Shown: positions 4,321-37,850, counted from the first letter of the stretch. The stretch: DNA of 40,826 nt from Acidimicrobiia bacterium (GCA_024763085.1 JANTGE010000003.1:1-40826), one strand, 5' to 3'. Numbers and translations are program-made. The notes: a model not told the origin generated them from the letters alone.

Positions 4321-4721
4321 TGAGCCGAATCCTCGCGCTCGACTACGGAACCGTGCGGATCGGAGTCGCGATGAGCGACCCGTTGCGTCTGACGGCACAG
4401 CCACTCGACGTCCTCGCCGCCGACGACTGGCACGATGCGTTGGAGCGGCTCGTTGCCGAGTACCAGATCGAGGAGATCGTCGTCGGATTGCCGACGTCCC
4501 TGGACGGGTCCGAGACGGCGGCGGCCATGGCGGCTCGGAGCTTCGGTGAGGAGGTGGCGGCGCTGACCGGCCTTCCGGTCTCGTTCGTAGATGAGCGCTT
4601 TAGCACTCGCATCGCCCACGACGCGATGCTCGCCGCCGACGCGTCGAGGGCAACCCGTCGCGGAAACATCGACAAGGTGGCCGCCGCGGTGATTCTGCAA
4701 AGCTGGCTGGATCGCCGATGA
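4320..4721 (+). CDS. ruvX: RuvX/YqgF family nuclease
   Basis: ILALDYGTVRIGVAMSD, VVGLP, VDERFST, IDKVAAAVILQSWL; follows alaS. Confidence 0.96.
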   Translation: MSRILALDYGTVRIGVAMSDPLRLTAQPLDVLAADDWHDALERLVAEYQIEEIVVGLPTSLDGSETAAAMAARSFGEEVAALTGLPVSFVDERFSTRIAHDAMLAADASRATRRGNIDKVAAAVILQSWLDRR

Positions 4722-5779
4722 CGAGTAAGGTCCGCCCCATCGTGGTACTCGCCGCCGTGGCGCTGGTCGCGGTGGTGGCGGTCACGGGGGCCAGAAAGCT
4801 CGCCGCTTGGGTAGGCGGTCTCGGAGGTGTCACCGACGTGACCGCGCCGGCCGACATCGTCGCGGGGGAGAGCGTCGAGGTGGTCATTCCGGCGGGTGTC
4901 GCTGCGAGGCAGATCGGGTCGCTGCTGGCCGAGAAGGGCATCGTCGATTCGTCTCTGGCGTTCGAGGCCGAGGTCCGTCGGCAGGGCGTCGCCGATCGGC
5001 TGCAAGCGGGCACCTACCGGATGGTGACCGGCATGGGACCTGCGGCAGCTCTGGAGGTGTTGCTCAACGGCCCCGAAGACGCTTCTTACCGCATCACGCT
5101 GAGGGAAGGGCTTTGGGTCAGCGAACTGCTTGCTTCGCTGGCGGAGCAGACGCCCTATACGCTGAGCGAGTTCGAAACTGCCCTCGACCAGGTTACGTCT
5201 CCCTATCACAACGGGGAAGCCGCAGACCCGCAGACGTGGGAAGGGCTGCTCTACCCGGACACCTACGAGATCTCCGAAAGCGCCACGCCGGTCCAGATAC
5301 TGCAGAAACTCGCCGACACCATGACGGCGCGGGTCGACAGCCTCGACTGGAGCGCGCTTCAAGCCCGCGGCCTCTCGGTCTACGAGGGCATCATCGTCGC
5401 TTCGATGGTCGAGGCCGAGGCCAAGGTGGACGACGATCGGCCTCTCATCGCCTCGGTGATCGTCAACCGGCTCGAGATCGGCATGCCGCTGCAGATCGAC
5501 GCCACCGTGCTCTATGCGCTCGGCGAACGCGGCAAGGCGCTGACGCTCGACGATCTCGAGATCGACTCGCCCTACAACACCTATCGGATCGGCGGCCTGC
5601 CCCCGACGCCGATCGGAGCGCCGGCATTGCGAAGCCTCGAAGCGGCGGCGCATCCCGCAGACTCCGACTTCCTGTACTACGTCCTTACGTCCGCCGATGG
5701 ACGCCACTCGTTCGCCGAGACGTACGACGAGTTCCTCCGTCTCAAAGCTCAGGCCAAAGCCGACGGGGTCCTTCCCTAA
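4718..5779 (+). CDS. mltG: Endolytic transglycosylase MltG
   Basis: N-terminal TM, EGLLYPDTY, IVASMVEAEA, IASVIVNRL..GMPLQIDATV, SPYNTY..GLPPTPI. Confidence 0.96.
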   Translation: MTSKVRPIVVLAAVALVAVVAVTGARKLAAWVGGLGGVTDVTAPADIVAGESVEVVIPAGVAARQIGSLLAEKGIVDSSLAFEAEVRRQGVADRLQAGTYRMVTGMGPAAALEVLLNGPEDASYRITLREGLWVSELLASLAEQTPYTLSEFETALDQVTSPYHNGEAADPQTWEGLLYPDTYEISESATPVQILQKLADTMTARVDSLDWSALQARGLSVYEGIIVASMVEAEAKVDDDRPLIASVIVNRLEIGMPLQIDATVLYALGERGKALTLDDLEIDSPYNTYRIGGLPPTPIGAPALRSLEAAAHPADSDFLYYVLTSADGRHSFAETYDEFLRLKAQAKADGVLP

Positions 5780-5783
5780 AAGT

Positions 5784-5812
5784 CTCAAGCCCGCTCTCGT
5801 CCGCGCCGACAT
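5784..5812 (+). promoter_or_regulatory. Putative sigma-28/WhiG-family promoter CTCAAG-N15-GCCGACAT
   Basis: Intergenic, upstream of the first pil-cluster gene; same motif and spacing at 8489, 11465 and 12076. Confidence 0.7.
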
Positions 5813-5840
5813 CACGAGAGGAACAGGAAGGGCAAACATC

Positions 5841-6797
5841 ATGTCATTGACCGGTGCGTTGGAGGCATTCCCGATCGCCGAGGTGATCGGTCTGATCGGT
5901 AAGACTCGCAAGAGCGGGGTGCTCAAGATCGACGGGGATCACATCGAGGCGCGCGTCTACTTCTCGGAAGGACGGGTCTCGTACGGCACGACCCGAAGGG
6001 ACGAAGAGTTCCATGCCAAGCTCGTCGAGGCGGGTCTCGTCGATCCGAAGCAGTGGGTGCACGTCGAACGTCGAGAGCGATCCATCGCAGACATTCTCGC
6101 GTCGGGAGCATCAGAGGAGACCCTCACCGCGTTCCTCAAAGATCAGGTTTCCGATGTCCTGTTCCGGATTCTGCGCCAGGACGCCGGCACCTTCTCGTTC
6201 AGCGACGACGTGGCTCCACGGTTCGATACCGGCGTCGTGCTCGACGTCGGCGAGTGCGTGGATGAGGCGAACCACCGCATGGCCCGCTGGGCCGACATCG
6301 AACAGGTCATTCCCGGCGTCGGCTTCCATCTGAGGCCGGTGGCAGCCGCCGCGCCTGACGACGGCTCCCTGCAACTCGACGCCGACGAGTGGCGCGTACT
6401 CGCCGGGTTGCTCGGCCAGGCATCGGTCGAGCATGTGGCCCGAACGCTCGGATGGTCCGAGTTCAAAGCAGCCGAAACCATGGCGGCGATGGTTCGGCGA
6501 GGTCTGCTCGAAGTGGCCGATCACCGACCAAACGCCCGGCATGTGTACGGGGAAGAGGCCGAGGATGTCCCACCGATCGAAGTAGTCGGACCGAGGGTGC
6601 CGGCGTCGCAGGAAGAGGGCCAGGAGGCGTCCGAGGCGACCGAGGAAACCGAGTCCGAGCCGTCGGCCGGCTCCGATGACGACGAGCGGGAACTCCTGAA
6701 AGGAGCCCTCTCCGACATGGTGGCCGAGCCGGATGACCGCCTCTCCGGTCTCCGACGCCGCCGAGGCATCGGGTCGATCGGGAGGGACGGTTCCTAG
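5841..6797 (+). CDS. DUF4388 (PatA-N/PATAN-like) domain protein with predicted winged-helix segment and acidic tail
   Basis: MSLTGALEAFPIAEVIGLIGKTRKSGVLKI...VYFSEGRV...GTFSF is the DUF4388 pattern; EWRVLAGL...SVEHVARTLGWSEFKAAETMAAMVRRGLLEV resembles a wHTH. Purine-rich RBS before ATG 5841. Confidence 0.8.
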   Translation: MSLTGALEAFPIAEVIGLIGKTRKSGVLKIDGDHIEARVYFSEGRVSYGTTRRDEEFHAKLVEAGLVDPKQWVHVERRERSIADILASGASEETLTAFLKDQVSDVLFRILRQDAGTFSFSDDVAPRFDTGVVLDVGECVDEANHRMARWADIEQVIPGVGFHLRPVAAAAPDDGSLQLDADEWRVLAGLLGQASVEHVARTLGWSEFKAAETMAAMVRRGLLEVADHRPNARHVYGEEAEDVPPIEVVGPRVPASQEEGQEASEATEETESEPSAGSDDDERELLKGALSDMVAEPDDRLSGLRRRRGIGSIGRDGS

Positions 6798-8486
6798 ATG
6801 ACCAGCCGCGGCATGGTCAGAAGAGACGCCGGCCACCTGGGCGCGTTGCTCCTCGAAGAGGGGATCGTCACCCAGGAGGCACTCGACCGCGCCCTCGAAA
6901 TCCACGCCGAGTCCGGTTTGCCGCTCGGCCGGGTTCTCGTCGACGAACGCCTCGTCGACGAACGTGACCTGGTTCGGGTGCTGGCGAGATCGATCGGGCT
7001 CGATTTCATCGACCTTCGGGAAGAAACGGTCGATCCGGCAGCGGCCTCGCTGATCCCGGAAGCGCTCGCCAGGCGATACGCCGCGCTGCCGGTTGCTTTC
7101 GACGGCGACAGTCTCGTGGTTGCGATGGCAGACCCGGCGAACGTGCTGGCCATCGACGACATTCGTGCCATCACCGGCCGTGAAGTGCTGCCGAAGGTCG
7201 CGACACGTTCCGACGTCGAAGACGCTATCGGAAAGATCGCTGCGCTCGATGGGTCGGTTACCGACCTTGCCGAACTTGCGGCGGAGGACAGCGTAGAGAC
7301 CCAGGACCTCGGTGCGGTCGAAGCGGCCGCCGACGAGGCGCCGGTCGTGAAGCTCGTCAACATGCTGATCACGAGGGCCGCCGCCGACAGAGCTTCCGAC
7401 ATTCACATCGAGCCCACCGAACGGGATCTCCGAGTTCGGTTCCGCATCGATGGGGTCCTTCACGAGATCATGCGAACGCCCCGTTCGATCTCCAACGCCG
7501 TGGTGTCCCGGCTGAAGATCATGGCAGACATCGACATCGCCGAACGCCGGCGCCCTCAGGACGGGCGCATCAACCTCAAGGTCGGAGGCAGGCAGCTGGA
7601 CCTTCGAGTGTCGTCGCTGCCCACGATCTACGGCGAGAAGGTCGTGATGCGCCTCCTCGATACTTCGACGGCGCTCCTCGAACTCGAAGATCTCGGCTTC
7701 GAGCCCGACACCCTCGAGCGCTACGCCGCTTCCTACACGAAACCGTACGGCACCATCCTGGTGGTCGGCCCGACCGGATCCGGAAAGTCGACGACGCTGT
7801 ACGCAACCCTCAACGTTCTCAACCGGCCCGAAGTCAACATCGTTACCATCGAAGATCCGGTCGAGTACCGGCTTTCGGGGATCAGCCAGGTGCAGGTGAA
7901 CAAGAAGGCCGGACTCACCTTCGCTTCCGCGCTGCGGTCGTTCCTTCGTCAGGACCCGGACATCATGCTCGTCGGCGAGATCCGGGACACCGAGACCGCA
8001 CGGATAGCGATCGAGTCGGCTCTGACCGGACACCTGGTGCTGTCAACGCTGCACACCAACGATGCGCCGTCTTCGATCAGCCGCCTCATCGAAATGGGCG
8101 TCGAGCCGTTTCTCGTCGGCTCGGCGCTCGACGGGGTACTTGCCCAGCGACTGGCCCGCCGCCTCTGTGACAACTGCAAAGAGCAATATGAGCCCACAGA
8201 ACAGGCACTCGAAGAGATCGGATGGGAAGGAGATCCCCCCGAGACGCTCTACCGGCCTGTCGGGTGCAAGGTCTGCTCCAACACGGGGTATCGGGGCCGA
8301 GTGGCCATCCACGAACTCATGTTGGTCGACGAAGACATCGAGCGCCTTGCAGTGGAGCGGGCCTCGACGGAAGTGATCACCCGTGCCGCCATCGCAGGCG
8401 GGATGCGACCTTTGAAACATGATGGGCTGCGAAAAGTGGCCGCAGGGATCACCAGCCTGGAAGAAATCCTCCGGGTCGTCGTCTGA
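6798..8486 (+). CDS. pilB: Type IV pilus extension ATPase PilB (GspE/PulE family) with N-terminal MshEN-type domain
   Basis: ASDIHIEP, DIAERRRPQDGR, GPTGSGKSTTLY, TIEDPVEY, LRQDPDIMLVGEIRD, TGHLVLSTLHTN, zinc motif CDNC..CKVC. Start could be ATG 6813. Confidence 0.95.
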   Translation: MTSRGMVRRDAGHLGALLLEEGIVTQEALDRALEIHAESGLPLGRVLVDERLVDERDLVRVLARSIGLDFIDLREETVDPAAASLIPEALARRYAALPVAFDGDSLVVAMADPANVLAIDDIRAITGREVLPKVATRSDVEDAIGKIAALDGSVTDLAELAAEDSVETQDLGAVEAAADEAPVVKLVNMLITRAAADRASDIHIEPTERDLRVRFRIDGVLHEIMRTPRSISNAVVSRLKIMADIDIAERRRPQDGRINLKVGGRQLDLRVSSLPTIYGEKVVMRLLDTSTALLELEDLGFEPDTLERYAASYTKPYGTILVVGPTGSGKSTTLYATLNVLNRPEVNIVTIEDPVEYRLSGISQVQVNKKAGLTFASALRSFLRQDPDIMLVGEIRDTETARIAIESALTGHLVLSTLHTNDAPSSISRLIEMGVEPFLVGSALDGVLAQRLARRLCDNCKEQYEPTEQALEEIGWEGDPPETLYRPVGCKVCSNTGYRGRVAIHELMLVDEDIERLAVERASTEVITRAAIAGGMRPLKHDGLRKVAAGITSLEEILRVVV

Positions 8487-8488
8487 GC

Positions 8489-8517
8489 GTCAAGGTGGAG
8501 GTTTCGATGACCGATAG
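8489..8517 (+). promoter_or_regulatory. Putative sigma-28/WhiG-family promoter GTCAAG-N15-ACCGATAG
   Basis: Between pilB stop and pilT ATG 8525; same spacing as the other three copies. Confidence 0.65.
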
Positions 8518-8524
8518 AAAGGGT

Positions 8525-10057
8525 ATGACGGTGCGTTCATCTCGTAAGCTCGGCGAACTGCTGGTCGACCAGCGTGTGCTGCCGCGGGACGTGCTGGAAG
8601 ACCTGCTCCGGGTCGAAGCCGACTCGGGCCGTCCTCTGGCCAAACTGCTGGTCGAGCGCGGCCACGTGCGGGAAGAAGACGTCCTTCGGGCAGTGGCGTC
8701 ACGCGTGGACGTTCCCTTCGTCGACCTTGACGATGCGCTGCTGGAACCGCAGGCAACCGGCATGCTTCCTTTCGAACGTGCCGCCGAACTGCTGGCCATG
8801 CCGGTCCGGAGAGAGTCAGACGGGACCGTGCTCGTCGCCGTCGCCGATCCGTTCAACGGGAACCTGCGACTGGCGCTCGAAGAGGACATGAAGAGTCCGG
8901 TGACGCTGGCGATGGCGACTCGAGAGGGCATCCATCGTGCCATCGAGTTCGTGTACGGAAAGGCAGCCGTCACCGCAGAGTCGAAGCCGGAACCTTCGAT
9001 CAACGACATGCTGACCTACGTGATGGAGAATGGTGGGTCAGATCTTCACCTGACCAGCGGAGTCCCACCACAGATACGGGTCAACGGTCGCCTCATGCCC
9101 ATCCCCGGATACGACCCGCTGATGCCCGCCGAACTCCGCCGGATGATCTACGGGATTCTCACCGAACGGCAGAGAGAAGCTTTGGAGGAGCACCTCGAGT
9201 TGGATGGGTCGCATCCGCTGCCCGGTCGCGGCCGATTCCGCATGAACGTGTTCTTCCAGCGGGACTCCATCGGCGCGGTGTTCCGGGCGATACCGACCGA
9301 GATCATGTCGATCGAAGAACTGGGCATGCCACCGGTCCTTGCCGAGTTCGCCGAACTCCATCGTGGCCTCGTGCTCGTCACAGGTCCGACGGGGGCCGGC
9401 AAGTCGACGACGCTCGCGGCGATCATCGACCGTATCAACAATCGGCGAGCGGTGCACATTTTGACCATCGAAGACCCGATTGAGTTTCTTCACCGGCACA
9501 AGAAGGCAATCGTCAATCAACGGGAGGTCGGGAACGACACTCTCGGCTTCCAAACGGCGCTCCGGCATGCACTTCGACAAGACCCGGACGTGCTGCTGGT
9601 GGGGGAGATGCGGGATCTCGAAACGATCTCCACGGCGCTGACGGCTGCCGAGACCGGCCACCTGGTGTTCGCAACGCTGCACACCCAGGACGCGCCCCAG
9701 ACGGTGGATCGGATCATCGACGTGTTTCCCGCGCATCAGCAACAGCAGGTCAGGGTGCAGTTGGCGGCGACGTTGCAGGCCATCGTCACTCAGCAGCTCG
9801 TACCCAGCCGAGACGGTCGCGGCAGGGTCGCCGCTGCCGAGGTGTTGGTTGCCACCCCGGCCATCAGGAACCTGATCCGGGAAGGGAAGACCCAGCAGAT
9901 CGCCACGGCGATGCAGTCCGGCGGGAAGTACGGGATGCAGACCATGGACCAGTCGCTCGCTGACCTGGTCAAGCGACAGAAGATCACGTTCGAAGAGGCC
10001 GTCGATCGCTGCGTGAACCTCGAAGACCTGCGGCGGCTGACCGGACGAGTTGCCTGA
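8525..10057 (+). CDS. pilT: Type IV pilus retraction ATPase PilT with N-terminal MshEN/N1-like extension
   Basis: GSDLHL, GPTGAGKSTTLAA, TIEDPIEF, LRQDPDVLLVGEMRD, AAETGHLVFATLHT, PilT signature AIRNLIRE, GMQTMDQSL; no tetra-Cys motif. Start 8525 or 8507. Confidence 0.93.
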   Translation: MTVRSSRKLGELLVDQRVLPRDVLEDLLRVEADSGRPLAKLLVERGHVREEDVLRAVASRVDVPFVDLDDALLEPQATGMLPFERAAELLAMPVRRESDGTVLVAVADPFNGNLRLALEEDMKSPVTLAMATREGIHRAIEFVYGKAAVTAESKPEPSINDMLTYVMENGGSDLHLTSGVPPQIRVNGRLMPIPGYDPLMPAELRRMIYGILTERQREALEEHLELDGSHPLPGRGRFRMNVFFQRDSIGAVFRAIPTEIMSIEELGMPPVLAEFAELHRGLVLVTGPTGAGKSTTLAAIIDRINNRRAVHILTIEDPIEFLHRHKKAIVNQREVGNDTLGFQTALRHALRQDPDVLLVGEMRDLETISTALTAAETGHLVFATLHTQDAPQTVDRIIDVFPAHQQQQVRVQLAATLQAIVTQQLVPSRDGRGRVAAAEVLVATPAIRNLIREGKTQQIATAMQSGGKYGMQTMDQSLADLVKRQKITFEEAVDRCVNLEDLRRLTGRVA

Positions 10058-10070
10058 CGGGAGGCCCAGC

Positions 10071-11288
10071 ATGGTCACATACGCATATCAGGTCAAAGAC
10101 AAAGAGGGCCTCATCCATAGCGGTGAGCTGAACGCAGACTCGACGGCTGCGGCAGTCCGCACCTTGCGTGATCGGGGCCTGTCTCCGATCTCGATCGAGG
10201 AGCAGAAGGCCTCCGCGCTGCAGAAAGAGATCAAGATCCCCGGTCTCTCCGGCCGGATCAAGACGAAAGAAGTGGCGGTCTTTTCTCGCCAGTTCGCCAC
10301 GATGATCAACGCTGGCCTCTCGCTGCTGCGATCCCTTGCGATCCTGTCCGAGCAGACGCCCAACCGGGCGTTCGCCGAGATCATCTCGGAGATCAAGGCC
10401 GACGTCGAAAAGGGCAAGAGCCTCTCCGAGGCGATGGACGGTCATCCGAAGGCCTTCAATCGACTGTACGTGGCGATGGTGCGCGCCGGTGAGATCGGCG
10501 GCGTGCTCGACGAGACCTTGCTTAGGTTGGCGGACACCCTGGAGCGACAGGTGGAGCTGCGCGGCAAGGTGAAGTCTGCGATGAGCTACCCGATTGCGGT
10601 GCTCGGGCTTGTTGTCCTGATCATGGCGGCCATGCTGATCTTCATCGTCCCCATGTTCGAAGACATGTACGCAGACCTGGGAGGGACGCTGCCGGTTCCA
10701 ACCCAGATACTGCTGTCTGTTTCACAGTTCGCCGTCGCGAAATGGTGGATCGTGCTGCTCGGCTTCGGGGTCTCCTTCTTCGCGTTCCGCAGGTGGGTGG
10801 CGACCGAACAAGGCCGTTTCCTCTTCGATTCGTTCAAACTGAAGGTGCCGATCTTCGGCGGTTTGACGCAGAAGACCGCGATCGCCCGCTTCTCAGAGAC
10901 GCTTGCGTCCCTGACGAGAACTGCCGTCCCGATCCTCCAGGCGATGGATATCGTCGCCGAGACCGCCGGCAATGAGGTCGTCGCTCGAGCCGTCAGGGAG
11001 GTCCGCTCGTCGGTCAAAGAGGGCGAGTCGTTGGCACAGCCACTGTCGAAACATCCCATCTTCCCGCCCATGGTCGTGCAGATGCTGGCCGTTGGCGAAG
11101 AGACTGGGGCACTCGACACGATGCTGGAGAAGATCGGCGACTTCTACAACGCCGAGGTCAACGCGACGGTGGACAGCCTGACCTCGCTCCTCGAACCACT
11201 CTTGATGGTCGTGCTGGGCGGGTCCGTTGGCGGCATGATCGTCGCCCTCTACATGCCGATGTTCAACCTCATCAACCTGGTGCAGTAG
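10071..11288 (+). CDS. pilC: Type IV pilus platform protein PilC (GspF family)
   Basis: FSRQFATMINAGL, MVRAGEIGGVLD, KVKSAMSYP, VGEETGALDTML, LLEP..ALYMPMF; RBS GGGAGG before ATG 10071. Confidence 0.96.
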   Translation: MVTYAYQVKDKEGLIHSGELNADSTAAAVRTLRDRGLSPISIEEQKASALQKEIKIPGLSGRIKTKEVAVFSRQFATMINAGLSLLRSLAILSEQTPNRAFAEIISEIKADVEKGKSLSEAMDGHPKAFNRLYVAMVRAGEIGGVLDETLLRLADTLERQVELRGKVKSAMSYPIAVLGLVVLIMAAMLIFIVPMFEDMYADLGGTLPVPTQILLSVSQFAVAKWWIVLLGFGVSFFAFRRWVATEQGRFLFDSFKLKVPIFGGLTQKTAIARFSETLASLTRTAVPILQAMDIVAETAGNEVVARAVREVRSSVKEGESLAQPLSKHPIFPPMVVQMLAVGEETGALDTMLEKIGDFYNAEVNATVDSLTSLLEPLLMVVLGGSVGGMIVALYMPMFNLINLVQ

Positions 11289-11396
11289 GCAGGCGACCTG
11301 CGACCCCAGAGTGCGGCTCTGAGAAAGTACCTGGTACTTGGTACCAGGTACTTTGGCATTGAAAGCCATCCACTTCGGGTTGGTCATGTCGCCTGC
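11289..11396. repeat. 108-nt nested imperfect inverted repeat with a perfect 14-bp core palindrome (11324-11354)
   Basis: Outer arms GCAGGCGAC (11289-97) and GTCGCCTGC (11388-96); core AAAGTACCTGGTAC-TTG-GTACCAGGTACTTT; intermediate imperfect arms. Confidence 0.85.
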
Positions 11397-11464
11397 GGTT
11401 TGGTCGACAGGGAACTAGTCCGCCGAGCAGGCCGACGATTGGTTCGCGTATGCGACTGAAAGTG

Positions 11465-11493
11465 CTCAAGGACATACGCTCGGTGGTCGATAG
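11465..11493 (+). promoter_or_regulatory. Putative sigma-28/WhiG-family promoter CTCAAG-N15-GTCGATAG
   Basis: Upstream of the major pilin. Followed by a small hairpin GGACCG-AGATC-CGGTCC (11504-11520) and SD GAAGGAG. Confidence 0.7.
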
Positions 11494-11536
11494 CGCATCT
11501 GAGGGACCGAGATCCGGTCCGGAAGGAGAAACCATC

Positions 11537-12010
11537 ATGATGCGCAAGATCCGCGAAGGACTTCGCAACGAAGAAGGCTTCACCCTCGTCGAGTTGATGG
11601 TGGTCGTGCTGATCATTGCCATTCTCATGGCGATTGCCATCCCGACGTTCCTGGGTGCTCGCGAGAAGGCGCAGGACCGCGCCGCGCAGAGCGACCTGCG
11701 GAACGGATTGACTGCAGCGAAGGTGTTCTATGTGGATGGGGAGACCTACCTCGACACTGACGCTGCAACGACGGCGGCTGCCTACGAAGCCCTCGAGCCG
11801 AGCATCGACTTCGATACGGTGGCAAATACGAGCACCAGCAAAGTCGGCGTGCTCGCCACAGCCAGTACCGTTCTGTTGACCAAGGAGAGCGCATCAGGGA
11901 CGTTCTTCTGCATCGCCGATGATACGAGCGGTGGCGGCACGACCTACGGGTCCGGTGCTGCGCTGGCCGATGTAGACACGGTCCTCGAGTGCAACGGCAC
12001 CAGCTGGTAG
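11537..12010 (+). CDS. pilA: Type IVa pilin, probable major pilin
   Basis: Class III signal peptide ...NEEG|FTLVELMVVVLIIAILMAIAIP with E5 and P22; C-terminal Cys pair; strong SD, own promoter and terminator. Confidence 0.92.
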   Translation: MMRKIREGLRNEEGFTLVELMVVVLIIAILMAIAIPTFLGAREKAQDRAAQSDLRNGLTAAKVFYVDGETYLDTDAATTAAAYEALEPSIDFDTVANTSTSKVGVLATASTVLLTKESASGTFFCIADDTSGGGTTYGSGAALADVDTVLECNGTSW

Positions 12011-12028
12011 TCCGAGAACCGAACGCCG

Positions 12029-12055
12029 AGAGAGGGTGGCTCAGCCACCCTCTCT
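12029..12055 (+). terminator. Intrinsic terminator-like hairpin after pilA
   Basis: Perfect 12-bp stem AGAGAGGGTGGC-TCA-GCCACCCTCTCT, 18 nt after the pilA stop; weak U tract. Confidence 0.75.
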
Positions 12056-12075
12056 TCGCGTTGCGGGGTGTTCCA

Positions 12076-12104
12076 CTCAAGGTGAGCCCTCGCCGCACCG
12101 ATGA
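12076..12104 (+). promoter_or_regulatory. Putative sigma-28/WhiG-family promoter CTCAAG-N15-ACCGATGA
   Basis: Directly after the pilA terminator and before the second pilin. Confidence 0.68.
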
Positions 12105-12114
12105 CATGAGCGAT

Positions 12115-12561
12115 ATGAAATCGGAGAGAGGCTTCACGCTTGTCGAGCTGATGGTGGTGGTGCTGATCATCGCCATGCTCATGGCGATCGGCATCCCGAC
12201 GTTCCTAGGTGCGCGAGAGCGGGCGCAAGACCGGGCAGCTGAGAGCAGGCTGATAGCCGCTCTCAAGACCGAGGAGGTCGTCGCCGTCGACGATGCCCAG
12301 TACACTGCCGTGGTGGCGATCTTGGCTGCTGCGGAACCGGCGCTCGACTGGTCGGGCGTTGCCGACGACTCGATTCACATCGTGGTCGGCGCGACGGTCA
12401 ATGCCAACGACACGGTGCTGCTCTACACGCAATCGAGCACCGGCTCGTGGCTCGGCGTGAAACGAGTCGCACAGGGTCCTACCACCGGCGTCTACACCTG
12501 CATCGGAGCGGCCCGCGCGGATGTCGATGACCTTGCCGACTGCACGGGGACGGAGTGGTAG
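12115..12561 (+). CDS. Second type IVa pilin (pilA paralog)
   Basis: MKSERG|FTLVELMVVVLIIAMLMAIGIPTFLGARERAQDRAA; Cys pair; ends CTGTEW. Start 12115 or 12106. Confidence 0.9.
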   Translation: MKSERGFTLVELMVVVLIIAMLMAIGIPTFLGARERAQDRAAESRLIAALKTEEVVAVDDAQYTAVVAILAAAEPALDWSGVADDSIHIVVGATVNANDTVLLYTQSSTGSWLGVKRVAQGPTTGVYTCIGAARADVDDLADCTGTEW

Positions 12562-13319
12562 TCGCTCTCGCCGCCATCCTTGGCCTCATCGTCGGTTCGT
12601 TCATCAACGTTGTCGCCTATCGGGTTCCAGAAGGAAAGTCCGTCGTTTCTCCAGGATCGGCGTGTCCGAACTGTGGAACTCCGATCAGACCCTATGACAA
12701 CATCCCGGTTGTCTCATGGCTCGTGCTGCGTGGGCGGTGCCGGGACTGTGGTAGTCGCATCTCCGTACGGTATCCGGTAGTGGAGGCGGGGACCGCAGTA
12801 CTCTTTGCCGCCGCCTTATTGGTCGTGGGCCTGCATTGGATCCTGGCCGCGTACCTGTGGTTTGCCGGTGTGACCATGACCCTCATCCTCACCGACCTCG
12901 ACCATCATCGACTACCCAACAAGATCGTCTATGTCGGAACGGCGGTTGGGGTCGTCCTCCTGACTGCCGGTGCTGTTGCCGACGGTCTGACGTCGAACTT
13001 GGGGAGGGCGCTGCTGGGCGGCGTGATCTACTTCGGCCTGCTCCTCCTCATCGCCATCGCTGCCCGCGGGGGCTTCGGCATGGGGGACGTCAAGCTCTCC
13101 TTCATGCTCGGCGTGTTCCTCGCCTTCCGCTCCTGGGCGGTGCTCGCATCCGGCGTCTTTCTGGCGTTCTTCGTCGGTGGCATCGTCTCGGTTGGCTTGC
13201 TGCTGCTGAGGCGGCGTGGTCGTAAGGACGCGATCGCCTTCGGCCCGGCCCTCATCGTTGGGGCCTGGCTTGCCCTGGGCATCGGAGAGCCGCTCGTACG
13301 GTGGTACCTCGGCGTCTGA
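12555..13319 (+). CDS. pilD: Prepilin peptidase/N-methyltransferase PilD (A24A)
   Basis: GSFINVVAYRVP, CPNC..DNIPVVSWLVLRGRCRDC..ISVRYPVVE, catalytic Asp motifs TDLDHHRLP and GMGDVKL, AFGPAL. Confidence 0.95.
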   Translation: MVVALAAILGLIVGSFINVVAYRVPEGKSVVSPGSACPNCGTPIRPYDNIPVVSWLVLRGRCRDCGSRISVRYPVVEAGTAVLFAAALLVVGLHWILAAYLWFAGVTMTLILTDLDHHRLPNKIVYVGTAVGVVLLTAGAVADGLTSNLGRALLGGVIYFGLLLLIAIAARGGFGMGDVKLSFMLGVFLAFRSWAVLASGVFLAFFVGGIVSVGLLLLRRRGRKDAIAFGPALIVGAWLALGIGEPLVRWYLGV

Positions 13320-13412
13320 TTGCTTGCAGCTTCTACCGTCCATTGGTAGGGTTCAAACAACATCGATGTAATTCGATGGTTGCCGGAGCGCTACCGGCTG
13401 GGCGGAGTAAAC

Positions 13413-14477
13413 ATGACGACGAATGTCGGGTTGGACATCGGCACCAGTGCTGTAAGAGCAGCCATGGTACAGATGCAAAGGGGAGCACCGGTACTCAAAC
13501 GGTACGGCCAAGTCGCGCTGACCGAAGGTGCCGTGGTCGGCGGTGAAATCGTCGACCCCGATCTGGTGCGAGATGCCCTGATCGCGCTCTGGAAGAGCGC
13601 GAAACTCCCGAAAAGACGGGTCGTCGTCGGCATCGCCAACCAGCGGATCATCGTTCGCCGCCTCGACGTTCCCTACATGTCCGAAGAGGAACTGCGGGAG
13701 TCGCTCGCCTTCCGGGCGGCGGAGTACGTTCCGATGGCGATCGACGACGCCGTCCTCGACTTCGTGCCCCTCGAAGAGTTCGCCACTCCAGAAGGCGAAG
13801 CCATGCTGTCGGTCCTTGTCATTGCCGCCCAGAAAGACATGATCGACGAAGTGCTTGGAGTGGTGACGGGGGCCGGCATCAAACCTATGGCGCTCGACCT
13901 TCAAGCGTTTGCGATGGTCCGGGCCGCGTTCGGCACCGAATTCGATGTGCCCCCGGGTTCTCAGGCAATGGTCAACATCGGTGCTGGGGTGACGCAGGTT
14001 GCGATCCTCAAGAACGGAACCGTTCGCTTTCTGCGCATCATGCCGATGGGAGGGAGCTCATTCACGAGAGCGCTGGCAAGCGCCGCGTCCATTTCATCGG
14101 ATGAAGCCGAACGCTTGAAGCGCCGCATCGGTGTTCTTCCAGAGGGCCGCGCAGATGCGGAAGGGGACCCGGGGAGAGCCGCCCTCACGAGGGAAGCCGA
14201 CGCCCTCATCGAGGAAGTTCGGGGGTCCCTCGACTTCTACCTCTCCGAAGCCCAGGATGAACGCATTGAGCGAGTCCTGATCTCCGGCAACGGAGCCAGA
14301 CTGCCCCATCTGGCCAACCGGCTGGCTTCGCAACTCGAGGTACCCATCGAACCGCTCCGGGTGTTGGCAGAGGGAAGGGTGCAAACGGGCAAGGTCGGCA
14401 TGTCCGAAGCAGAACTGGCACAGATCGAACCGGTCTTGCCTGTGCCGCTCGGCCTTGCGATGTGGGGTGAAGCCTGA
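13413..14477 (+). CDS. pilM: Type IV pilus assembly protein PilM (actin-like)
   Basis: VGLDIGTSAVRA, MVNIGAGVTQV, MGGSSFTRAL, EEVRGSLDFY, ISGNGARL; SD GGAG before ATG 13413. Confidence 0.93.
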   Translation: MTTNVGLDIGTSAVRAAMVQMQRGAPVLKRYGQVALTEGAVVGGEIVDPDLVRDALIALWKSAKLPKRRVVVGIANQRIIVRRLDVPYMSEEELRESLAFRAAEYVPMAIDDAVLDFVPLEEFATPEGEAMLSVLVIAAQKDMIDEVLGVVTGAGIKPMALDLQAFAMVRAAFGTEFDVPPGSQAMVNIGAGVTQVAILKNGTVRFLRIMPMGGSSFTRALASAASISSDEAERLKRRIGVLPEGRADAEGDPGRAALTREADALIEEVRGSLDFYLSEAQDERIERVLISGNGARLPHLANRLASQLEVPIEPLRVLAEGRVQTGKVGMSEAELAQIEPVLPVPLGLAMWGEA

Positions 14478-15097
14478 TGCGTCCCGTCAACCTGCTGCCG
14501 GGAGAGCTGGCCAAGAAAGCCGCAGGCCGCCGCCGACTGTTTGGCCTCATGGCCCTCGGAGCAGCCTATGTGTTGGTGCTGGTCATGGTGGCCGTGTGGT
14601 GGAACGGGAAGCTCGCAGACGCCGAGGCGGAGCTGGCGCGGCAGGAGCAACTCAACACTGCTACCTCAGGCAAGATCGCAGCGCTGAAAGATGCCGAGGA
14701 GCTCAGATCCACCTACGACACCGATGTGGCCCTGGTACAAGCTGCGCTGGCACGCGACGTCGCATGGGGGCGACTCTTCAACGACCTTGCCCGGGTGATT
14801 CCCGAGCGGGTATGGCTCACAGGATTCTCCGGGACGGCCGTCGATGATCCGGATGCGCCGGAAGTGTACGGACAGCTGCAAATGAGTGGCACGGCGTTCG
14901 ACTACCCGGACGTCTCGACCTGGCTTCGGGTACTCGACGAGGATCCCTGGCCCTCGGTCGGTGGAGGATGGGTGACATCAGCCACGCTCTCGAGCATCGG
15001 TGAAGTCCCGATTGTGGAGTTCAACTCTGCTGCATCTCTGACCGCAGCAAGCCTTTCCGAACGCGCCGCCGAACGGATACCCGAGGTGCCGCAATGA
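14477..15097 (+). CDS. pilN: Type IV pilus alignment protein PilN
   Basis: N-terminal VNLLP motif, TM helix, coiled coil, W..LFNDLARVIPERVWLTGF. Confidence 0.9.
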   Translation: MRPVNLLPGELAKKAAGRRRLFGLMALGAAYVLVLVMVAVWWNGKLADAEAELARQEQLNTATSGKIAALKDAEELRSTYDTDVALVQAALARDVAWGRLFNDLARVIPERVWLTGFSGTAVDDPDAPEVYGQLQMSGTAFDYPDVSTWLRVLDEDPWPSVGGGWVTSATLSSIGEVPIVEFNSAASLTAASLSERAAERIPEVPQ

Positions 15098-15741
15098 AAC
15101 GTCAGACGCTGGTCGTCGCCTTGCTCGTCTTCGTAGCGGTCACGGCCCTGTGGTACATGTTCGGACTGCGGCCGATCAACGAGAAGATCGGCGAGACGGA
15201 TTCCCAGCTTCAGGCTGCGCAGGATGAGGCGGTGCTTCTGCAAACCAGATTGGCGAGACTGCAGAAGATCCGTGACAACGAACTCAGCTACATCTCGGCC
15301 ATAGGTGCCCTCGAAGCGCAGATTCCGCCGACGCCGAGTATGCCGGGACTCATCGAAGACCTGAACACTCTTGCCGATGAGACCGGCATCGACTGGCTCG
15401 GTGCGACCTGGGGCGCTCCGACGGAGATCGAAGGTGCAGGGTATTTCGAGATACCCATCACCTTGCAGGTCGAAGGACAATTCTTCGAACTGCTCGGCTA
15501 CCTGTACGGGATGTCGGACCTGGAGCGACTCGTCCGGATCGACGGCGTAACGATCTCCCCAACCGAGCAGGACGGCTTCATCGTGCTCAACGTGACGATC
15601 AACGCCAAAGCGTTTGCTACCAGCGGCATTGCGGTTCCGGAGATCCCTGCCGACGAAGAGACCACCACGACCACGACCGAACCGTCGACCACGACTACGA
15701 CGACGGAGGCAACCACGACGACCACGACAGGAGGTGCCTGA
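15094..15741 (+). CDS. pilO: Type IV pilus alignment protein PilO with Thr-rich tail
   Basis: N-terminal TM, coiled coil, IPPTPSMPGLIEDL, EIPITLQVEGQFFELLGYL..LERLVRID; follows pilN. Confidence 0.88.
   Translation: MKRQTLVVALLVFVAVTALWYMFGLRPINEKIGETDSQLQAAQDEAVLLQTRLARLQKIRDNELSYISAIGALEAQIPPTPSMPGLIEDLNTLADETGIDWLGATWGAPTEIEGAGYFEIPITLQVEGQFFELLGYLYGMSDLERLVRIDGVTISPTEQDGFIVLNVTINAKAFATSGIAVPEIPADEETTTTTTEPSTTTTTTEATTTTTTGGA
15661..15729 (+). repeat. Low-complexity ACN repeat encoding three runs of six Thr
   Basis: TTTTTT-EPS-TTTTTT-EA-TTTTTT at the PilO C-terminus, mixed synonymous codons. Confidence 0.9.
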
Positions 15742-16238
15742 TGACGGCGAGAACCGGCACCGCGGTCGCTGTCTCCATCCTGATGCTCGGCGTCGCGGTG
15801 GCGGTGAGCTGGCTCCTGCTCGGTCCGGCCATCATGGGAGCGTCCCCCGCGGCCCTCGACGGCCCTCTTGCCCAGCCGAGTCCTGCCGCACCCGCCCCGG
15901 CAGGGCTCGCAGGGCAGGAGATCGCCACCGGTGCGTTTCAGCTCGCCCAGCCCCGGGACCCGTTCAGGCCGCTGATCACCGAAGGATCCCCGGTTGGAGG
16001 TGGGGGAGGGACCGGCACCTTCGAGCCGTCCGGGATCCGGGTAGAGCTCATGGAGGTCCGCGACGTAGCCGGTGTCTTGCGAGCGACGGTGCAAGTCGAC
16101 TCCACCTCATACGATGTAGGAGTCGGTGACGTCTTCGCCGACGACTTCATGGTGGTGAGTCTCGACACCGACTCAGTGGTGATCCTCTACCGGGACAACG
16201 CCTTCACCCTGACGGTTGGCGATGTGATCTTCAAGTAG
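15741..16238 (+). CDS. PilP/GspC-like membrane-anchored protein
   Basis: After pilO; N-terminal TM, Pro/Ala linker, RDPFRPL motif, beta-rich C-terminal domain (RATVQVDSTSYDVGVGD); no Cys, so no lipobox. Confidence 0.65.
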   Translation: MTARTGTAVAVSILMLGVAVAVSWLLLGPAIMGASPAALDGPLAQPSPAAPAPAGLAGQEIATGAFQLAQPRDPFRPLITEGSPVGGGGGTGTFEPSGIRVELMEVRDVAGVLRATVQVDSTSYDVGVGDVFADDFMVVSLDTDSVVILYRDNAFTLTVGDVIFK

Positions 16239-16276: not shown

Positions 16277-17410
16277 ATGTTGCGATTCCTCACCGCCGGA
16301 GAGTCTCATGGTGTCGGACTCGTCACCATCGTCGACGGTCTGCCGGCTGGTCTTCGGTTCACCGCCGATGGGCTCGCCGGAGAGTTGGCACGGCGCCGGC
16401 AGGGATACGGCCGCGGACCGAGGATGCGGATCGAACGGGATGAGATCGAGATCATCGCCGGGATCCGGTTCGGCCTCACCACCGGCGCGCCCGTTGCGGT
16501 GGTCATCCGCAACACGGAAGCGGAACGGTGGAAGGACGAGTTGGACCCCGCTCCAGGAGGCAGGCCGAAGCGCCTCCTGACGACTCCCCGTCCCGGACAT
16601 GCCGACCTGCCCGGCATGCAGAAATACGACACCGGGGACGCCCGCCCGATCCTGGAGCGGGCCTCGGCCCGAGAGACCGCCGCAAGGGCGGTTGCCGGCT
16701 ATGCCGCCGAGGAACTCCTGGCGGCGCTCGGGGTGTCCGTCGTTGGCTCGGTCGTCCAGATTGGCGGCGAGACCGCCTCCCGGGCCGCCACCGTCGCGGA
16801 GCGGGAACTCATCGAAGCGTCGCCGACCAGATCCGTCGATGGTGCCGAGGCCATGATGATGGCGATCGACCGTGCCAAAGCCGACAGGGACACGCTGGGA
16901 GGAATCTTCGCGGTGGTAGCCGAAGGCGTACCCGCCGGACTCGGCTCTCACACCCAGTGGGACCGGCGACTCGACGGTCTGCTTGGACGGGCACTTCTGT
17001 CGATTCCCGCGGTGAAAGGCGTCGAGATCGGCGACGCGTTCGCCACGGCAGCGGGCCCCGGATCGGCGGCCCACGACGAGATCGACACCGATCGACGGCG
17101 CCTCTCCAACCGTGCAGGTGGCGTCGAGGGAGGAATGAGCAACGGCGAACCGATCGTGGTCAAAGCGGCGATGAAGCCTCTCTCGACGCTGATGCGCCCG
17201 CTTCGCACCGTGGACGTCGCAACCGGCGGGGCCGATGTGGCCTTCCGGGAGCGATCCGATGTCTGTGCCGTCCCGGCCGCGTCGGTCGTCGGCGAACACA
17301 TGGTGGCATGGACCCTTGCCGTGGCTTTCGTCGAGATGTTCGGAGGCGACACGATCACGGACGTGCAGGAGCGGGTCGCCGCCTACCGCGCGAGACTGGA
17401 CGAACGTTGA
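16277..17410 (+). CDS. aroC: Chorismate synthase
   Basis: MLRFLTAGESHG, RRRQGYGRGPRM, PRPGHADL, LERASARETAAR, NRAGGVEGGMSNG, ERSDVCAVP. Confidence 0.98.
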   Translation: MLRFLTAGESHGVGLVTIVDGLPAGLRFTADGLAGELARRRQGYGRGPRMRIERDEIEIIAGIRFGLTTGAPVAVVIRNTEAERWKDELDPAPGGRPKRLLTTPRPGHADLPGMQKYDTGDARPILERASARETAARAVAGYAAEELLAALGVSVVGSVVQIGGETASRAATVAERELIEASPTRSVDGAEAMMMAIDRAKADRDTLGGIFAVVAEGVPAGLGSHTQWDRRLDGLLGRALLSIPAVKGVEIGDAFATAAGPGSAAHDEIDTDRRRLSNRAGGVEGGMSNGEPIVVKAAMKPLSTLMRPLRTVDVATGGADVAFRERSDVCAVPAASVVGEHMVAWTLAVAFVEMFGGDTITDVQERVAAYRARLDER

Positions 17411-31496: not shown

Positions 31497-32426
31497 ATGG
31501 CAGAACGGATTCTGGTCGTAGACGACGACCCGGACATCCTGCAGTTCATACGGGTCAACCTCGAACTGGAGGGATTCGGGGTCGAGTTGGCGACGACCGG
31601 CGCCGACGCGATCGAGTCGGTGTCGCAACAGCCGCCCGACCTGGTACTCCTGGACGTCATGATGCCCGGGATGGACGGCTTCGGGGTACTTCGCAGACTG
31701 CGAGCGCATCCCGCCGCGGCCAACACGTCGATCATCCTCCTCACCGCCAGGACGCTGCCCGAAGACCGTATCCGGGGTCTCGAACTCGGCGCCGACGACT
31801 ACATCACGAAACCTTTCGATGTCGACGAGCTGATCGCCCGGGTGAAGGCGGTACTCAGAAGGTCGCAGACGATGCGGGACGTGTCGCCCCTCACCGGGCT
31901 TCCGGGCAACTTTCGGATTTCGCAGGAGTTGGAGCGTCGCATCCGGCAAGGGAGTCCACTGGCCATCGTCCAGGCGGACCTCGACAACTTCAAGGCCTAC
32001 AACGACCACTACGGCTTCATGCGGGGAGACCAGGTCATCAAGTTCACCGCCCATGCGCTCCTCGAAGCCGCCGCCGGATGCGGTGCCGCCGATGCGTTCG
32101 TCGGGCACATTGGAGGGGATGACTTCCTGGCCGTCGTCCACCCTGACGCCGTTGAGACCTTCTGCAAGCTGGGAATCACGACCTTCGACAACGGCATTCT
32201 GGACTTCTACGACACCGAAGACGCCCTCCGGGGCTACATCGAGGTGCCCGACCGGCGGGGAGAACAGCACGCGTTCCCGATCGTATCTATCTCGATGGGT
32301 GTCGTAACGAACCTGCATCGTCCGATCACGTCACAGTGGGAGGCCTCGGCCATCGCCGTGGAGATGAAGGAGTTCGCCAAGCAGGTGGCCGGCTCCTCCT
32401 ACCGGATCGACCGACGGACCGCCTGA
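31497..32426 (+). CDS. Response regulator with REC and GGDEF-family (GGDDF) domains; putative diguanylate cyclase
   Basis: REC: ILVVDDD, LLDVMMP, LTA, KPF. Cyclase: PLTGLPGN, DLDNFKAYNDHYG..RGD, GHIGGDDF. Confidence 0.9.
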   Translation: MAERILVVDDDPDILQFIRVNLELEGFGVELATTGADAIESVSQQPPDLVLLDVMMPGMDGFGVLRRLRAHPAAANTSIILLTARTLPEDRIRGLELGADDYITKPFDVDELIARVKAVLRRSQTMRDVSPLTGLPGNFRISQELERRIRQGSPLAIVQADLDNFKAYNDHYGFMRGDQVIKFTAHALLEAAAGCGAADAFVGHIGGDDFLAVVHPDAVETFCKLGITTFDNGILDFYDTEDALRGYIEVPDRRGEQHAFPIVSISMGVVTNLHRPITSQWEASAIAVEMKEFAKQVAGSSYRIDRRTA

Positions 32427-36787: not shown

Positions 36788-37138
36788 ATGGCCCGCGTGA
36801 AACGAGCCGTCCACGGACGGAAGAAGCACCGCAAGGTGATGGCCAGGGCGAAGGGCTACAAGGGAGCCAAGAGCCGCCGCTTCAAGACAGCCAACGAGCA
36901 GGTCATGCACGCGATGGCGGACTCATATGCCCACCGCCGTGCGCGCAAAGGGGAGTTCCGGCGCCTTTGGATCAGCCGTATCAACGCGGCTGCCCGGCAG
37001 AACGGCACCACCTACTCGAAACTCATGGCAGATCTGAAGGCGGCAGATATCGAGGTCGACCGCAAGATGCTCGCCGACCTCGCGGTCACCGATCCGGACG
37101 CGTTCCGCAACATCGTAGAGGCAGCAAACCGCGGCTGA
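36788..37138 (+). CDS. rplT: 50S ribosomal protein L20
   Basis: MARVKR, AKGYKGAKSR, RRARKGEFRRLWISRINAAAR, DRKMLADLAV. Confidence 0.98.
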   Translation: MARVKRAVHGRKKHRKVMARAKGYKGAKSRRFKTANEQVMHAMADSYAHRRARKGEFRRLWISRINAAARQNGTTYSKLMADLKAADIEVDRKMLADLAVTDPDAFRNIVEAANRG

Positions 37139-37139
37139 G

Positions 37140-37838
37140 ATAGCATCTCCGCGTAACCCGCGAATCGTCGCCGCGGCGAAGCTGCATCAGGCAGCGGAGC
37201 GGCGACGAAGTGGTCTCGGGCTTCTGGAAGGGCCTCATCTCGTCCATGAGGCCCTGACGGCCGGAGTGACCTTCGAAGCGGTGTACAGCATCGAACCGAT
37301 GGGTATCCCCGGTGAGATCAGCATCTCGGAGGAGGTGCTGAAACGCCTCGCCGGCACCCGAAGCCCGCAAAGCCCGGTGGCAGTGTTTCGTCTTCCCGGC
37401 GAAACGCCGCCGGCCCGGTCGATGCTGGTGTTGTGGCAGGTCGCAGACCCGGGCAACGTCGGCACCCTCATCCGCAGTGCGGCGATGTTCGGCTTGGACG
37501 TGGTCACCCACGGGGGAGCGGACGTGTGGTCGCCCAAGGCGTTGCGGGCGGGGGCCGGAGCCCACTTCCACACGGCCATCTCGTCGGTCGATCGTCTCGA
37601 AGACCTCCCCCACGACGCCGCTTTGGTCGCCACCGTCGTGAGCGACGGCCTTCCCCTCGACGAGGTACCCGACGGAAGAGTCGCAGTGCTCATCGGCGCC
37701 GAGGCCCAGGGACTGCCCGATACCATCGTCGATCGGTGCGACGTGGCGGTCACCATCCAGGGTTGCGGCGATGTCGAGAGCCTCAACGCAGCCGCCGCGG
37801 GTTCGATCATCGCTTCTGTCGTCGGTTGCCGGGACTAA
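37140..37838 (+). CDS. TrmH/SpoU family RNA methyltransferase (probable ATA start 37140; first GTG 37266)
   Basis: DPGNVGTLIRSA, GAEAQGL, ESLNAAAA. In-frame upstream segment IASPRNPRIV..LH..R..LLEGPHLVHEAL is the usual N-terminus. Confidence 0.9.
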   Translation: MASPRNPRIVAAAKLHQAAERRRSGLGLLEGPHLVHEALTAGVTFEAVYSIEPMGIPGEISISEEVLKRLAGTRSPQSPVAVFRLPGETPPARSMLVLWQVADPGNVGTLIRSAAMFGLDVVTHGGADVWSPKALRAGAGAHFHTAISSVDRLEDLPHDAALVATVVSDGLPLDEVPDGRVAVLIGAEAQGLPDTIVDRCDVAVTIQGCGDVESLNAAAAGSIIASVVGCRD

Positions 37839-37850
37839 CCTGCCACCTCT

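Follow-up and report, generated by a model that had tools for sequence, protein, structure and literature searches.

The window, by which we mean the whole 40,826-nucleotide (nt) stretch of DNA from an Acidimicrobiia bacterium (GCA_024763085.1, JANTGE010000003.1:1–40826), contains a compact type IVa pilus operon on the plus strand, with the gene order PATAN, pilB, pilT fusion, pilC, two pilins, pilD, pilM, pilN and pilO. The pilT gene encodes a 516-amino-acid (aa) protein composed, from its N-terminus, of an MshEN_N subdomain, an MshEN_C subdomain, a flexible linker and the N2 and C-terminal ATPase domains of PilT. Both its length and the MshEN (N1) domain at residues 1–165 break the PilT norm of a two-domain protein (N2 plus C-terminal domain) of ~345 aa. 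The gene and its parts are:

8507..10057, plus strand: pilT fusion gene, 516 aa, with stop codon (the list of open reading frames (ORFs) gives GTG 8495 as start)
8497..8501, plus strand: GGAGG, Shine-Dalgarno-like from the sequence, with a 5-nt spacer to ATG 8507
8507..8704, plus strand: MshEN_N subdomain, residues 1–66, a four-helix bundle with two degenerate 24-residue motifs of the cyclic di-GMP (c-di-GMP) type
8720..8977, plus strand: MshEN_C or N1E-like alpha-beta subdomain, residues 72–157, with a conserved VADP at 112–115
8966..9010, plus strand: flexible linker, approximately residues 154–168 (predicted local distance difference test score (pLDDT) below 50 at 154–158; gap-rich alignment columns)
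9011..10024, plus strand: PilT ATPase core, residues 169–506 (TIGR01420, motifs, core tree)

The PilT core and its N-terminal extension

Profile searches place the ATPase core with PilT. The NCBIfam model TIGR01420 (pilT_fam) matches residues 169–506 over model positions 2–338 of 343 with 489.3 bits (cut-off 319.1), while the models for PilB (TIGR02538, 177.9 bits, cut-off 675.65) and GspE (TIGR02533, 147.2 bits, cut-off 630.25) remain below their cut-offs; Pfam T2SSE matches residues 166–462. The core contains GPTGAGKS at residues 293–300, DPDVLLVGE at 359–367, TGHLV at 383 and AIRNLIRE at 452–459, which we take to be the Walker A, Walker B and His box motifs of additional-strand catalytic E (ASCE) secretion ATPases and the PilT-specific AIRNLIRE helix. 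The zinc tetracysteine is absent, the protein having a single cysteine (Cys502), compared with cysteines 457, 460, 490 and 493 in the adjacent PilB. These results bear out the initial annotation, made from the sequence alone, in its description of a PilT core with AIRNLIRE and no zinc motif. The PilB core of the genome itself served as root for a tree of 102 PilT cores, and its very long branch makes the root position approximate; in this tree the fused protein falls inside a starred Actinomycetota PilT clade and away from PilB, branching with PilT and not with PilB or GspE.

The fused protein thus shares with canonical PilT of type IVa pili (TIGR01420; P. aeruginosa and G. metallireducens, PMC6858323) the N2 and C-terminal ATPase core, the Walker A and B motifs, His box and AIRNLIRE, the lack of a zinc tetracysteine, and a place beside pilB and pilC, and differs from it by ~165 extra N-terminal residues that make up a complete MshEN/N1 domain. 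That PilT normally has no N1 domain, as the initial annotation had it, is in line with reviews and with the peer-review file of Wang et al. (2016), whose authors describe canonical PilT as ~345 aa long and without MshEN. A second PilT paralog of 360 aa, without the N-domain, is encoded on an unlinked contig (C118; locus L002, 1489–2571); it is 46.5% identical to the fused PilT core, scores 437 bits on TIGR01420, over the cut-off, has ARVFDRIVEE in place of AIRNLIRE, and is sited away from pil genes, with a 346-aa ORF on one side and another ORF on the other. Because this paralog lacks AIRNLIRE and lies outside the pil locus, the fused protein is the operon's own PilT and, presumably, its retraction ATPase.

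The extension matches Pfam MshEN (PF05157) at residues 72–157 with 46.9 bits (cut-off 23.1), and its two 24-residue motifs occupy residues 14–37 and 43–66, with AlphaFold2 (AF2) helices at 4–21, 27–40, 44–50 and 56–66. The AF2 model of the full protein has a mean pLDDT of 86.4 and a predicted template-modelling score (pTM) of 0.67, with block means of 87–97 over residues 11–150; folded alone, the N-domain reaches a pLDDT of 93.3 (above 95 in the MshEN_C subdomain) and a pTM of 0.80. Residues 1–165 are therefore predicted with confidence to fold as an MshEN/N1 domain. The best Foldseek match of this model is MshE with bound c-di-GMP (5HTL, E 2.6e-10, TM 0.64 by target), followed by PilF GSPII-A and GSPII-B, the X. 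citri PilB-N:PilZ complex and XpsE-N, with 8PDK at E 2.3e-8, and phmmer relates the sequence to 5HTL (E 1.7e-10) and PilF (E 1.8e-27). MshE of V. cholerae, PilB and the GSPII-A, -B and -C domains of T. thermophilus PilF have this same two-subdomain fold, placed ahead of N2 on a flexible linker; in the fused protein the linker differs in length between relatives, and the domain sits on a PilT rather than a PilB/GspE core.

When the N-terminal 172 aa are compared by BLASTP with residues 1–181 of the adjacent PilB, 117 aa align at 35% identity (E 5e-19). All five short sequence pairs that the initial annotation had aligned by eye between the two proteins are real, the first four lying in the BLASTP alignment and the fifth (ATREGIHRAI/ATRSDVEDAI) in a MAFFT alignment, and its central proposal, an MshEN/N1 domain ahead of a PilT core, is upheld by PF05157 and TIGR01420 both scoring over cut-off.

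The open frame for the fused protein spans 8495..10057 on the plus strand. We favour ATG 8507 as start, 20 nt after the pilB stop; ATG 8525 is a possible alternative, at which the closest homolog (P0002) begins, and the N-domain is retained with either. Translation from the internal Met168 (ATG 9008), with a short PilT of canonical form as product, was considered and rejected, since no Shine-Dalgarno-like sequence precedes it and the methionine is not conserved, being mostly leucine in homologs. Among the 120 best homologs listed, the window's own protein included, 119 contain both PF05157 and PF00437, and most are 508–550 aa long with 98% query coverage, the exception being a 368-aa entry on a 1.5-kb contig; where names are given they read 'PilT/PilU family' or 'twitching motility protein PilT', and several of the proteins come from Acidimicrobiia. 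Across 29 homologs, G16, L19, V54 and P115 of the N-domain are invariant and about 12 positions are at least 90% conserved; the set that is invariant in 20 diverse fusions is limited to L19, A64 and P115. To judge from this conservation, the extension is translated and kept under selection.

The other genes of the operon are:

5841..6797, plus strand: PATAN (DUF4388) protein, 318 aa (PF14332, 63.5 bits; homologs begin at the same methionine)
6798..8486, plus strand: pilB, extension ATPase of 562 aa that also has an MshEN domain, and a tetracysteine motif
10050..11288, plus strand: pilC, platform protein with two T2SSF domains, overlapping the pilT stop (alternative start ATG 10071)
11450..12561, plus strand: two type IV pilin genes with N_methyl motif
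12555..13319, plus strand: pilD, prepilin peptidase
13380..15741, plus strand: pilM (13380–14477), pilN (14477–15097) and pilO (15094–15741)

The last nt of the PATAN gene is 1 nt ahead of the pilB start (in the ORF list its frame is longer, from 5697), and no secretin gene is found among the annotated genes. The initial annotation had also given the pilT gene its own internal promoter; this we could not reproduce, as a scan of 5500–11500, limited to sigma-70-type consensus sites, which an actinobacterial promoter could escape, returned 0 promoter-like and 0 terminator-like sites around a gene that starts 20 nt behind pilB.

The operon is embedded in a housekeeping block, with alaS, ruvX and mltG before it and aroC, aroB, pyr genes and others after it. 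In the window, mltG lies at 4718–5779, PATAN and the pil genes at 5841–15741 and aroC at 16277–17410. The block alaS-ruvX-mltG-(aroE)-aroC-aroB around the pil operon is conserved (related loci L113, L114, L119, L121 and L123–L128); the window has no aroE between mltG and pilB, the PATAN gene standing there instead. Neither an ORF of 165 aa after pilO (15741–16238), possibly one more component of pilus assembly, nor a 585-aa ORF on the minus strand (37086–38843) matches Pfam at E 1e-4.

Distribution and origin of the fusion

A search with the single protein gave PilT-like matches in 301 of 401 genomes of the phylum, full-length in some families only. A profile of 20 diverse fusions matched in one frame, from profile position 2–5 to 529–530, in 46 of the 401; adding one genome matched from 42 to 530 (G150), two cut by contig ends (G126 and G112), one matched from 2 to 477 (G106) and the window's own genome, in which the match is split, the fusion is present in at least 51 genomes and 14 family codes (f1, f3, f4, f5, f8, f14, f15, f20, f21, f22, f24, f39, f58 and f72). 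Five further genomes match from profile position 57–61, that is, over MshEN_C only. These counts are lower bounds from the best 150 matches and include unpublished genomes (G001, G174 and G268 among the 51, G082 among the five), without which they become 48 and four; f72 is represented by G268 only. Pfam finds MshEN upstream of the core and in frame in 18 of 20 fetched loci, which were picked for full-length matches or long frames and include lineages too diverged for tblastn.

MshEN is present in three of 35 named loci in which the PilT core begins at least 60 aa into the open frame, namely an Actinomycetes metagenome-assembled genome (MAG), an Egicoccus sp. and an Acidimicrobiaceae MAG. The search beyond the phylum covered the best 80 of 612 stretches and is not a census. 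One candidate fusion from Planctomycetota (L054) was discarded, its match extending over query residues 11–514 yet its PilT frame being 372 aa long with the core at 16–366, and in a Planctomycetales locus (L074) a 276-aa upstream extension shows no MshEN at E 1e-5.

A different regulatory domain also occurs ahead of PilT. Three of the 35 named loci encode a receiver domain N-terminal to the core (REC-PilT: L031 4317–6062, a Coriobacteriia MAG; L035 4056–6062, a MAG labelled Eubacteriales; L036 4293–6092, Actinobacteria UBA6100), and these form their own clade in the core tree (99*). They resemble the fused PilT in having a regulatory domain before the core and differ in that they would be controlled by phosphorylation, not through a docking or nucleotide module. 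In a genome of family f46 (G066, L097 74–1864), PilT has a ~240-aa extension of another kind, acidic, proline-rich, of low complexity and without an MshEN match, on a core that lies within the same clade as the fused PilT cores.

In a tree of 38 N-domains, from which one gappy row (T_G110) was dropped, 21 PilT N-domains (PilT-N) and 17 PilB N-domains (PilB-N) fall on opposite sides of a single 99/99 branch; the PilT domain has therefore not been repeatedly copied from the neighbouring PilB, and the fusion is old and not a recent copy of the adjacent PilB domain. In 16 of 17 loci, pilT is directly preceded by pilB. That PilB shares the N-domain fold and a VA.ADP motif with the fused PilT; its own N-domain belongs to the separate, old paralog group and has a DPANV..DDIR signature that PilT-N lacks. 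The initial annotation's statement that both motors carry the same module has to be amended: the two PilB-type MshEN domains are old paralogs, and in the PilT copy the c-di-GMP motif is degenerate.

On the core tree, all 22 MshEN-positive cores lie in one starred clade of 42 Actinomycetota rows. The other 20 rows of that clade, in which no domain was detected, belong mostly to one derived Actinomycetes group (Cellulomonas, Microbacteriaceae, Kineosporiaceae, Actinoplanes). Some of these negative calls are unreliable, since L013, L014 and L015 run off contig ends, the scan covered frames with at least 60 aa upstream, and the Pfam threshold was 1e-5. The minimum number of changes on the tree is six, and the pattern fits one gain followed by several losses.

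The architecture is real, old and conserved, and with at least 51 of the 401 genomes carrying it and automated annotation already reading 'PilT/PilU family', it is not rare in the phylum. No description of a PilT carrying MshEN was found in the literature searched (open-licence PMC full text and bioRxiv).

State of the c-di-GMP motifs

The published c-di-GMP-binding sequence is a tandem 24-residue motif, RLGxx(L/V/I)(L/V/I)xxG(L/V/I)(L/V/I)xxxxLxxxLxxQ, with a 5-residue spacer (PMC5013675). In the fused PilT this spacing is kept. Compared with MshE, the domain carries R9K, G18R, Q32E, R38P, G40A, L54V, L58V and Q61R; scored on the relaxed pattern of Wang 2016, motif I deviates at 10R and 24E and motif II at 3A and 11H. 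On the NCBIfam model NF053729 (cut-off 38) the fused PilT scores 34.6 bits, below the cut-off, and the adjacent PilB 55.7. As a yes/no test the relaxed pattern was dropped: none of 19 PilT-N and only one of 15 PilB-N match it, with departures mostly at position 1, which is tolerant in PilF. Individual motif positions were weighed instead for that reason, and among these the motif-II Gly3 is kept in three of 19 PilT-N versus 10 of 15 PilB-N.

Several of these positions matter for binding in other systems. G18, Q32 and G40 are among the residues called key by Wang et al., Q32 and R9 being the first identified for c-di-GMP binding in MshE, and the changes in the non-binder XpsE include G40L, L54H, L58C and Q61V (PMC5013675). 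GSPII-A of PilF, with a good motif I and a degenerate motif II, does not bind (PMC11731258), and the motif pattern of the fused PilT, like that of most PilT-N, is nearer to this non-binder than to MshE. No ligand-contact position is conserved throughout the 20 diverse fusions. On this comparison of sequences, the canonical c-di-GMP site is probably weakened or lost in the fused PilT. The motif is degenerate in most relatives, with few lineages near-intact: one PilT-N (G140) has a single deviation per motif and another (G164) deviates at position 1 only, and in such lineages the domain may sense c-di-GMP. In the PilT N-domains of family f15 (L088, L089 and L091), a conserved tryptophan, peculiar to this lineage, stands at the motif-II glycine that corresponds to MshE G40 (S-A-W-K, T-P-W-K and S-G-W-K).

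The most serious alternative to a docking role, set out below, is that the N-domain works as a receptor for c-di-GMP (or cyclic GMP-AMP), so that the second messenger would act on the retraction motor as well as on PilB in a dual switch. The fold matches c-di-GMP-bound MshE and PilF GSPII-B, and the K-L-G start of motif I is kept, with lysine at motif-I position 1 also found in GSPII-B, which binds at 6 nM, and proline at motif-II position 1 in GSPII-C, which binds at 460 nM (PMC11731258). The nearly canonical motifs of G140 and G164 point the same way. Four GGDEF matches are present in the genome, one of them in the window, and EAL and PilZ domains were not found in this 89.6% complete genome, which would leave MshEN as the main known receptor type. 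The window's GGDEF match belongs to a 309-aa REC-GGDEF protein (31497–32426) and covers only model positions 5–88 of 161; its cyclase domain may be truncated or degenerate. Weighed against the substitutions G18R, Q32E and G40A, the sub-threshold NF053729 score and the erosion of motif II, these points leave a working receptor unlikely, as is canonical c-di-GMP binding by the fused PilT itself.

Proposed role of the N-domain

What the N-domain does we infer by analogy with better-known pilus and secretion ATPases. The reading we favour, with a probability of roughly 55%, is that it is a docking or regulatory handle, coupling the motor to PilM/PilN and/or offering a site for a PATAN regulator. 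It would act like the N1 domain of PilB, as a tethered handle by which the hexamer is coupled to the platform on its cytoplasmic side (PilM bound to PilN), and/or a regulatory protein would bind to it, one candidate being the PATAN protein, whose gene lies just upstream of pilB; retraction would then be recruited or gated via an interface of the kind that serves extension. Competition for PilM or the DUF4388 protein, as suggested in the initial annotation, is likewise conjectural. PilF requires its ATPase-adjacent GSPII domain (GSPII-C) for stimulation of the ATPase by PilMN, and the N-termini of type II secretion system ATPases bind GspL, a PilM homolog (PMC6325625). In Synechocystis, a PATAN domain is reported to bind the N-terminal part of PilB1 and PilC's N-terminal domain, and not PilT1 or PilT2, which have no N-domain (bioRxiv 10.1101/2021.06.11.447907).

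Family f22 offers a further hint of a shared input. In all four genomes examined whose PilT lacks the helical MshEN_N, PilB lacks it too, and in all three with a full PilT-N, PilB keeps its helical bundle; such correlated loss is what a shared input would predict. The loci are:

f22, bundle lost: L100/L123 (G110), L101/L124 (G008), L125 (G053), L126 (G096)
f22, bundle kept: L104/L119 (G023), L127 (G068), L128 (G038)

The genome contains two DUF4388 matches, one abutting pilB and one on another contig. A predicted complex of PATAN residues 1–235 with PilT-N residues 1–168 scored 0.00 in both runs, with controls not folded, and counts neither for nor against binding. As a universal neighbour, PATAN was rejected, being found at 5 of 17 loci by BLAST and fewer by Pfam (see below); the gene directly upstream of pilB in related loci is aroE in 10 of 20 and an ATP_bind_1 GTPase-like gene in five of 20, one of them also with PATAN. 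These GTPase-like genes (L108 324–938, L109 346–993, L110 510–1055, L111 1751–2473 and L116 72–674) give weaker matches as well, three of them to GTP_EFTU and two to Arf or Ras, and in L110 the gene comes after a PATAN gene. The sequence neighbourhood suggests an MglA/PATAN-type polarity module attached to actinobacterial pili.

Several observations weigh against a docking or regulatory handle. The GSPII domains of PilF are dispensable for PilMN binding, and only stimulation needs them (PMC6325625); canonical PilT engages PilM and PilC with no N1 domain at all (PMC11656802), so docking as such does not need one. By Pfam, PATAN lies directly upstream of pilB in only four of 20 related loci, and a PATAN partner therefore cannot explain the fusion phylum-wide. 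The co-loss in f22 falls within one family and may be a single event among kin. Finally, loss of c-di-GMP binding is uncertain when read from motifs, given that the motif-I lysine and motif-II proline are tolerated in PilF and that the genome encodes GGDEF domains.

Two other explanations fare less well than a receptor. The N-domain could be an intramolecular regulator with no external partner or ligand, either an autoinhibitory lid or a hexamer-stabilising ring such as that proposed for the PilF N1 ring; the flexible linker of variable length would suit this, deletion of GSPII domains alters the stability of the PilF complex (PMC6325625), and the residues conserved phylum-wide are core residues only. 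We nevertheless consider it improbable, in that PilB and PilT have lost the helical subdomain together, genome by genome, which points to an input common to two proteins, and in the AF2 monomer N1 is not confidently packed against the ATPase (pTM 0.67, linker of low confidence), a monomer model being weak evidence here. That the fused protein is instead a PilT-like extension or dual-function ATPase, with the 360-aa paralog on contig C118 as the real retraction motor, is very improbable: although that paralog passes TIGR01420 (437 bits) without an N-domain and V. cholerae PilT is reported to promote MSHA pilus extension too (PMC9815625), the fused protein has the exact AIRNLIRE where the paralog has ARVFDRIVEE, its gene sits between pilB and pilC beside a full PilB, its score is 489 with the PilT model and 178 with that for PilB, and in the tree its core is placed within PilT, a long way from PilB.

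A docking or regulatory handle on both motors leads to a broader, tentative picture. It is possible that in the secretin-less type IVa pilus of much of the Actinomycetota motor exchange is symmetric, the N1/MshEN handles of both motors being recruited, stimulated or excluded via one common interface (PilM-PilN and/or the PATAN/MglA-type module upstream of pilB), with c-di-GMP acting directly on retraction in near-canonical lineages (e.g. f24 and f58) and joint helical loss reflecting loss of the shared input. If true, this would be unlike the asymmetric PilB/PilT competition of model proteobacteria.

In current models of the pilus, PilT is an ATPase without additions, and the N1/MshEN domain is found on the extension motor only, where it receives c-di-GMP, PilZ-FimX, PATAN and GspL/PilM-type inputs. 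Retention of that domain under selection on the PilT of a large lineage means that this extension-motor-only rule is not general, and that an MshEN plus T2SSE Pfam architecture is unusable for calling PilB in Actinomycetota. The range of motifs from near-intact to eroded, together with a family that has lost the helical half from both motors, provides ready comparisons for biochemistry, and the presence of the same domain on two opposing motors in one operon makes these bacteria a natural system in which to ask what N1 does.

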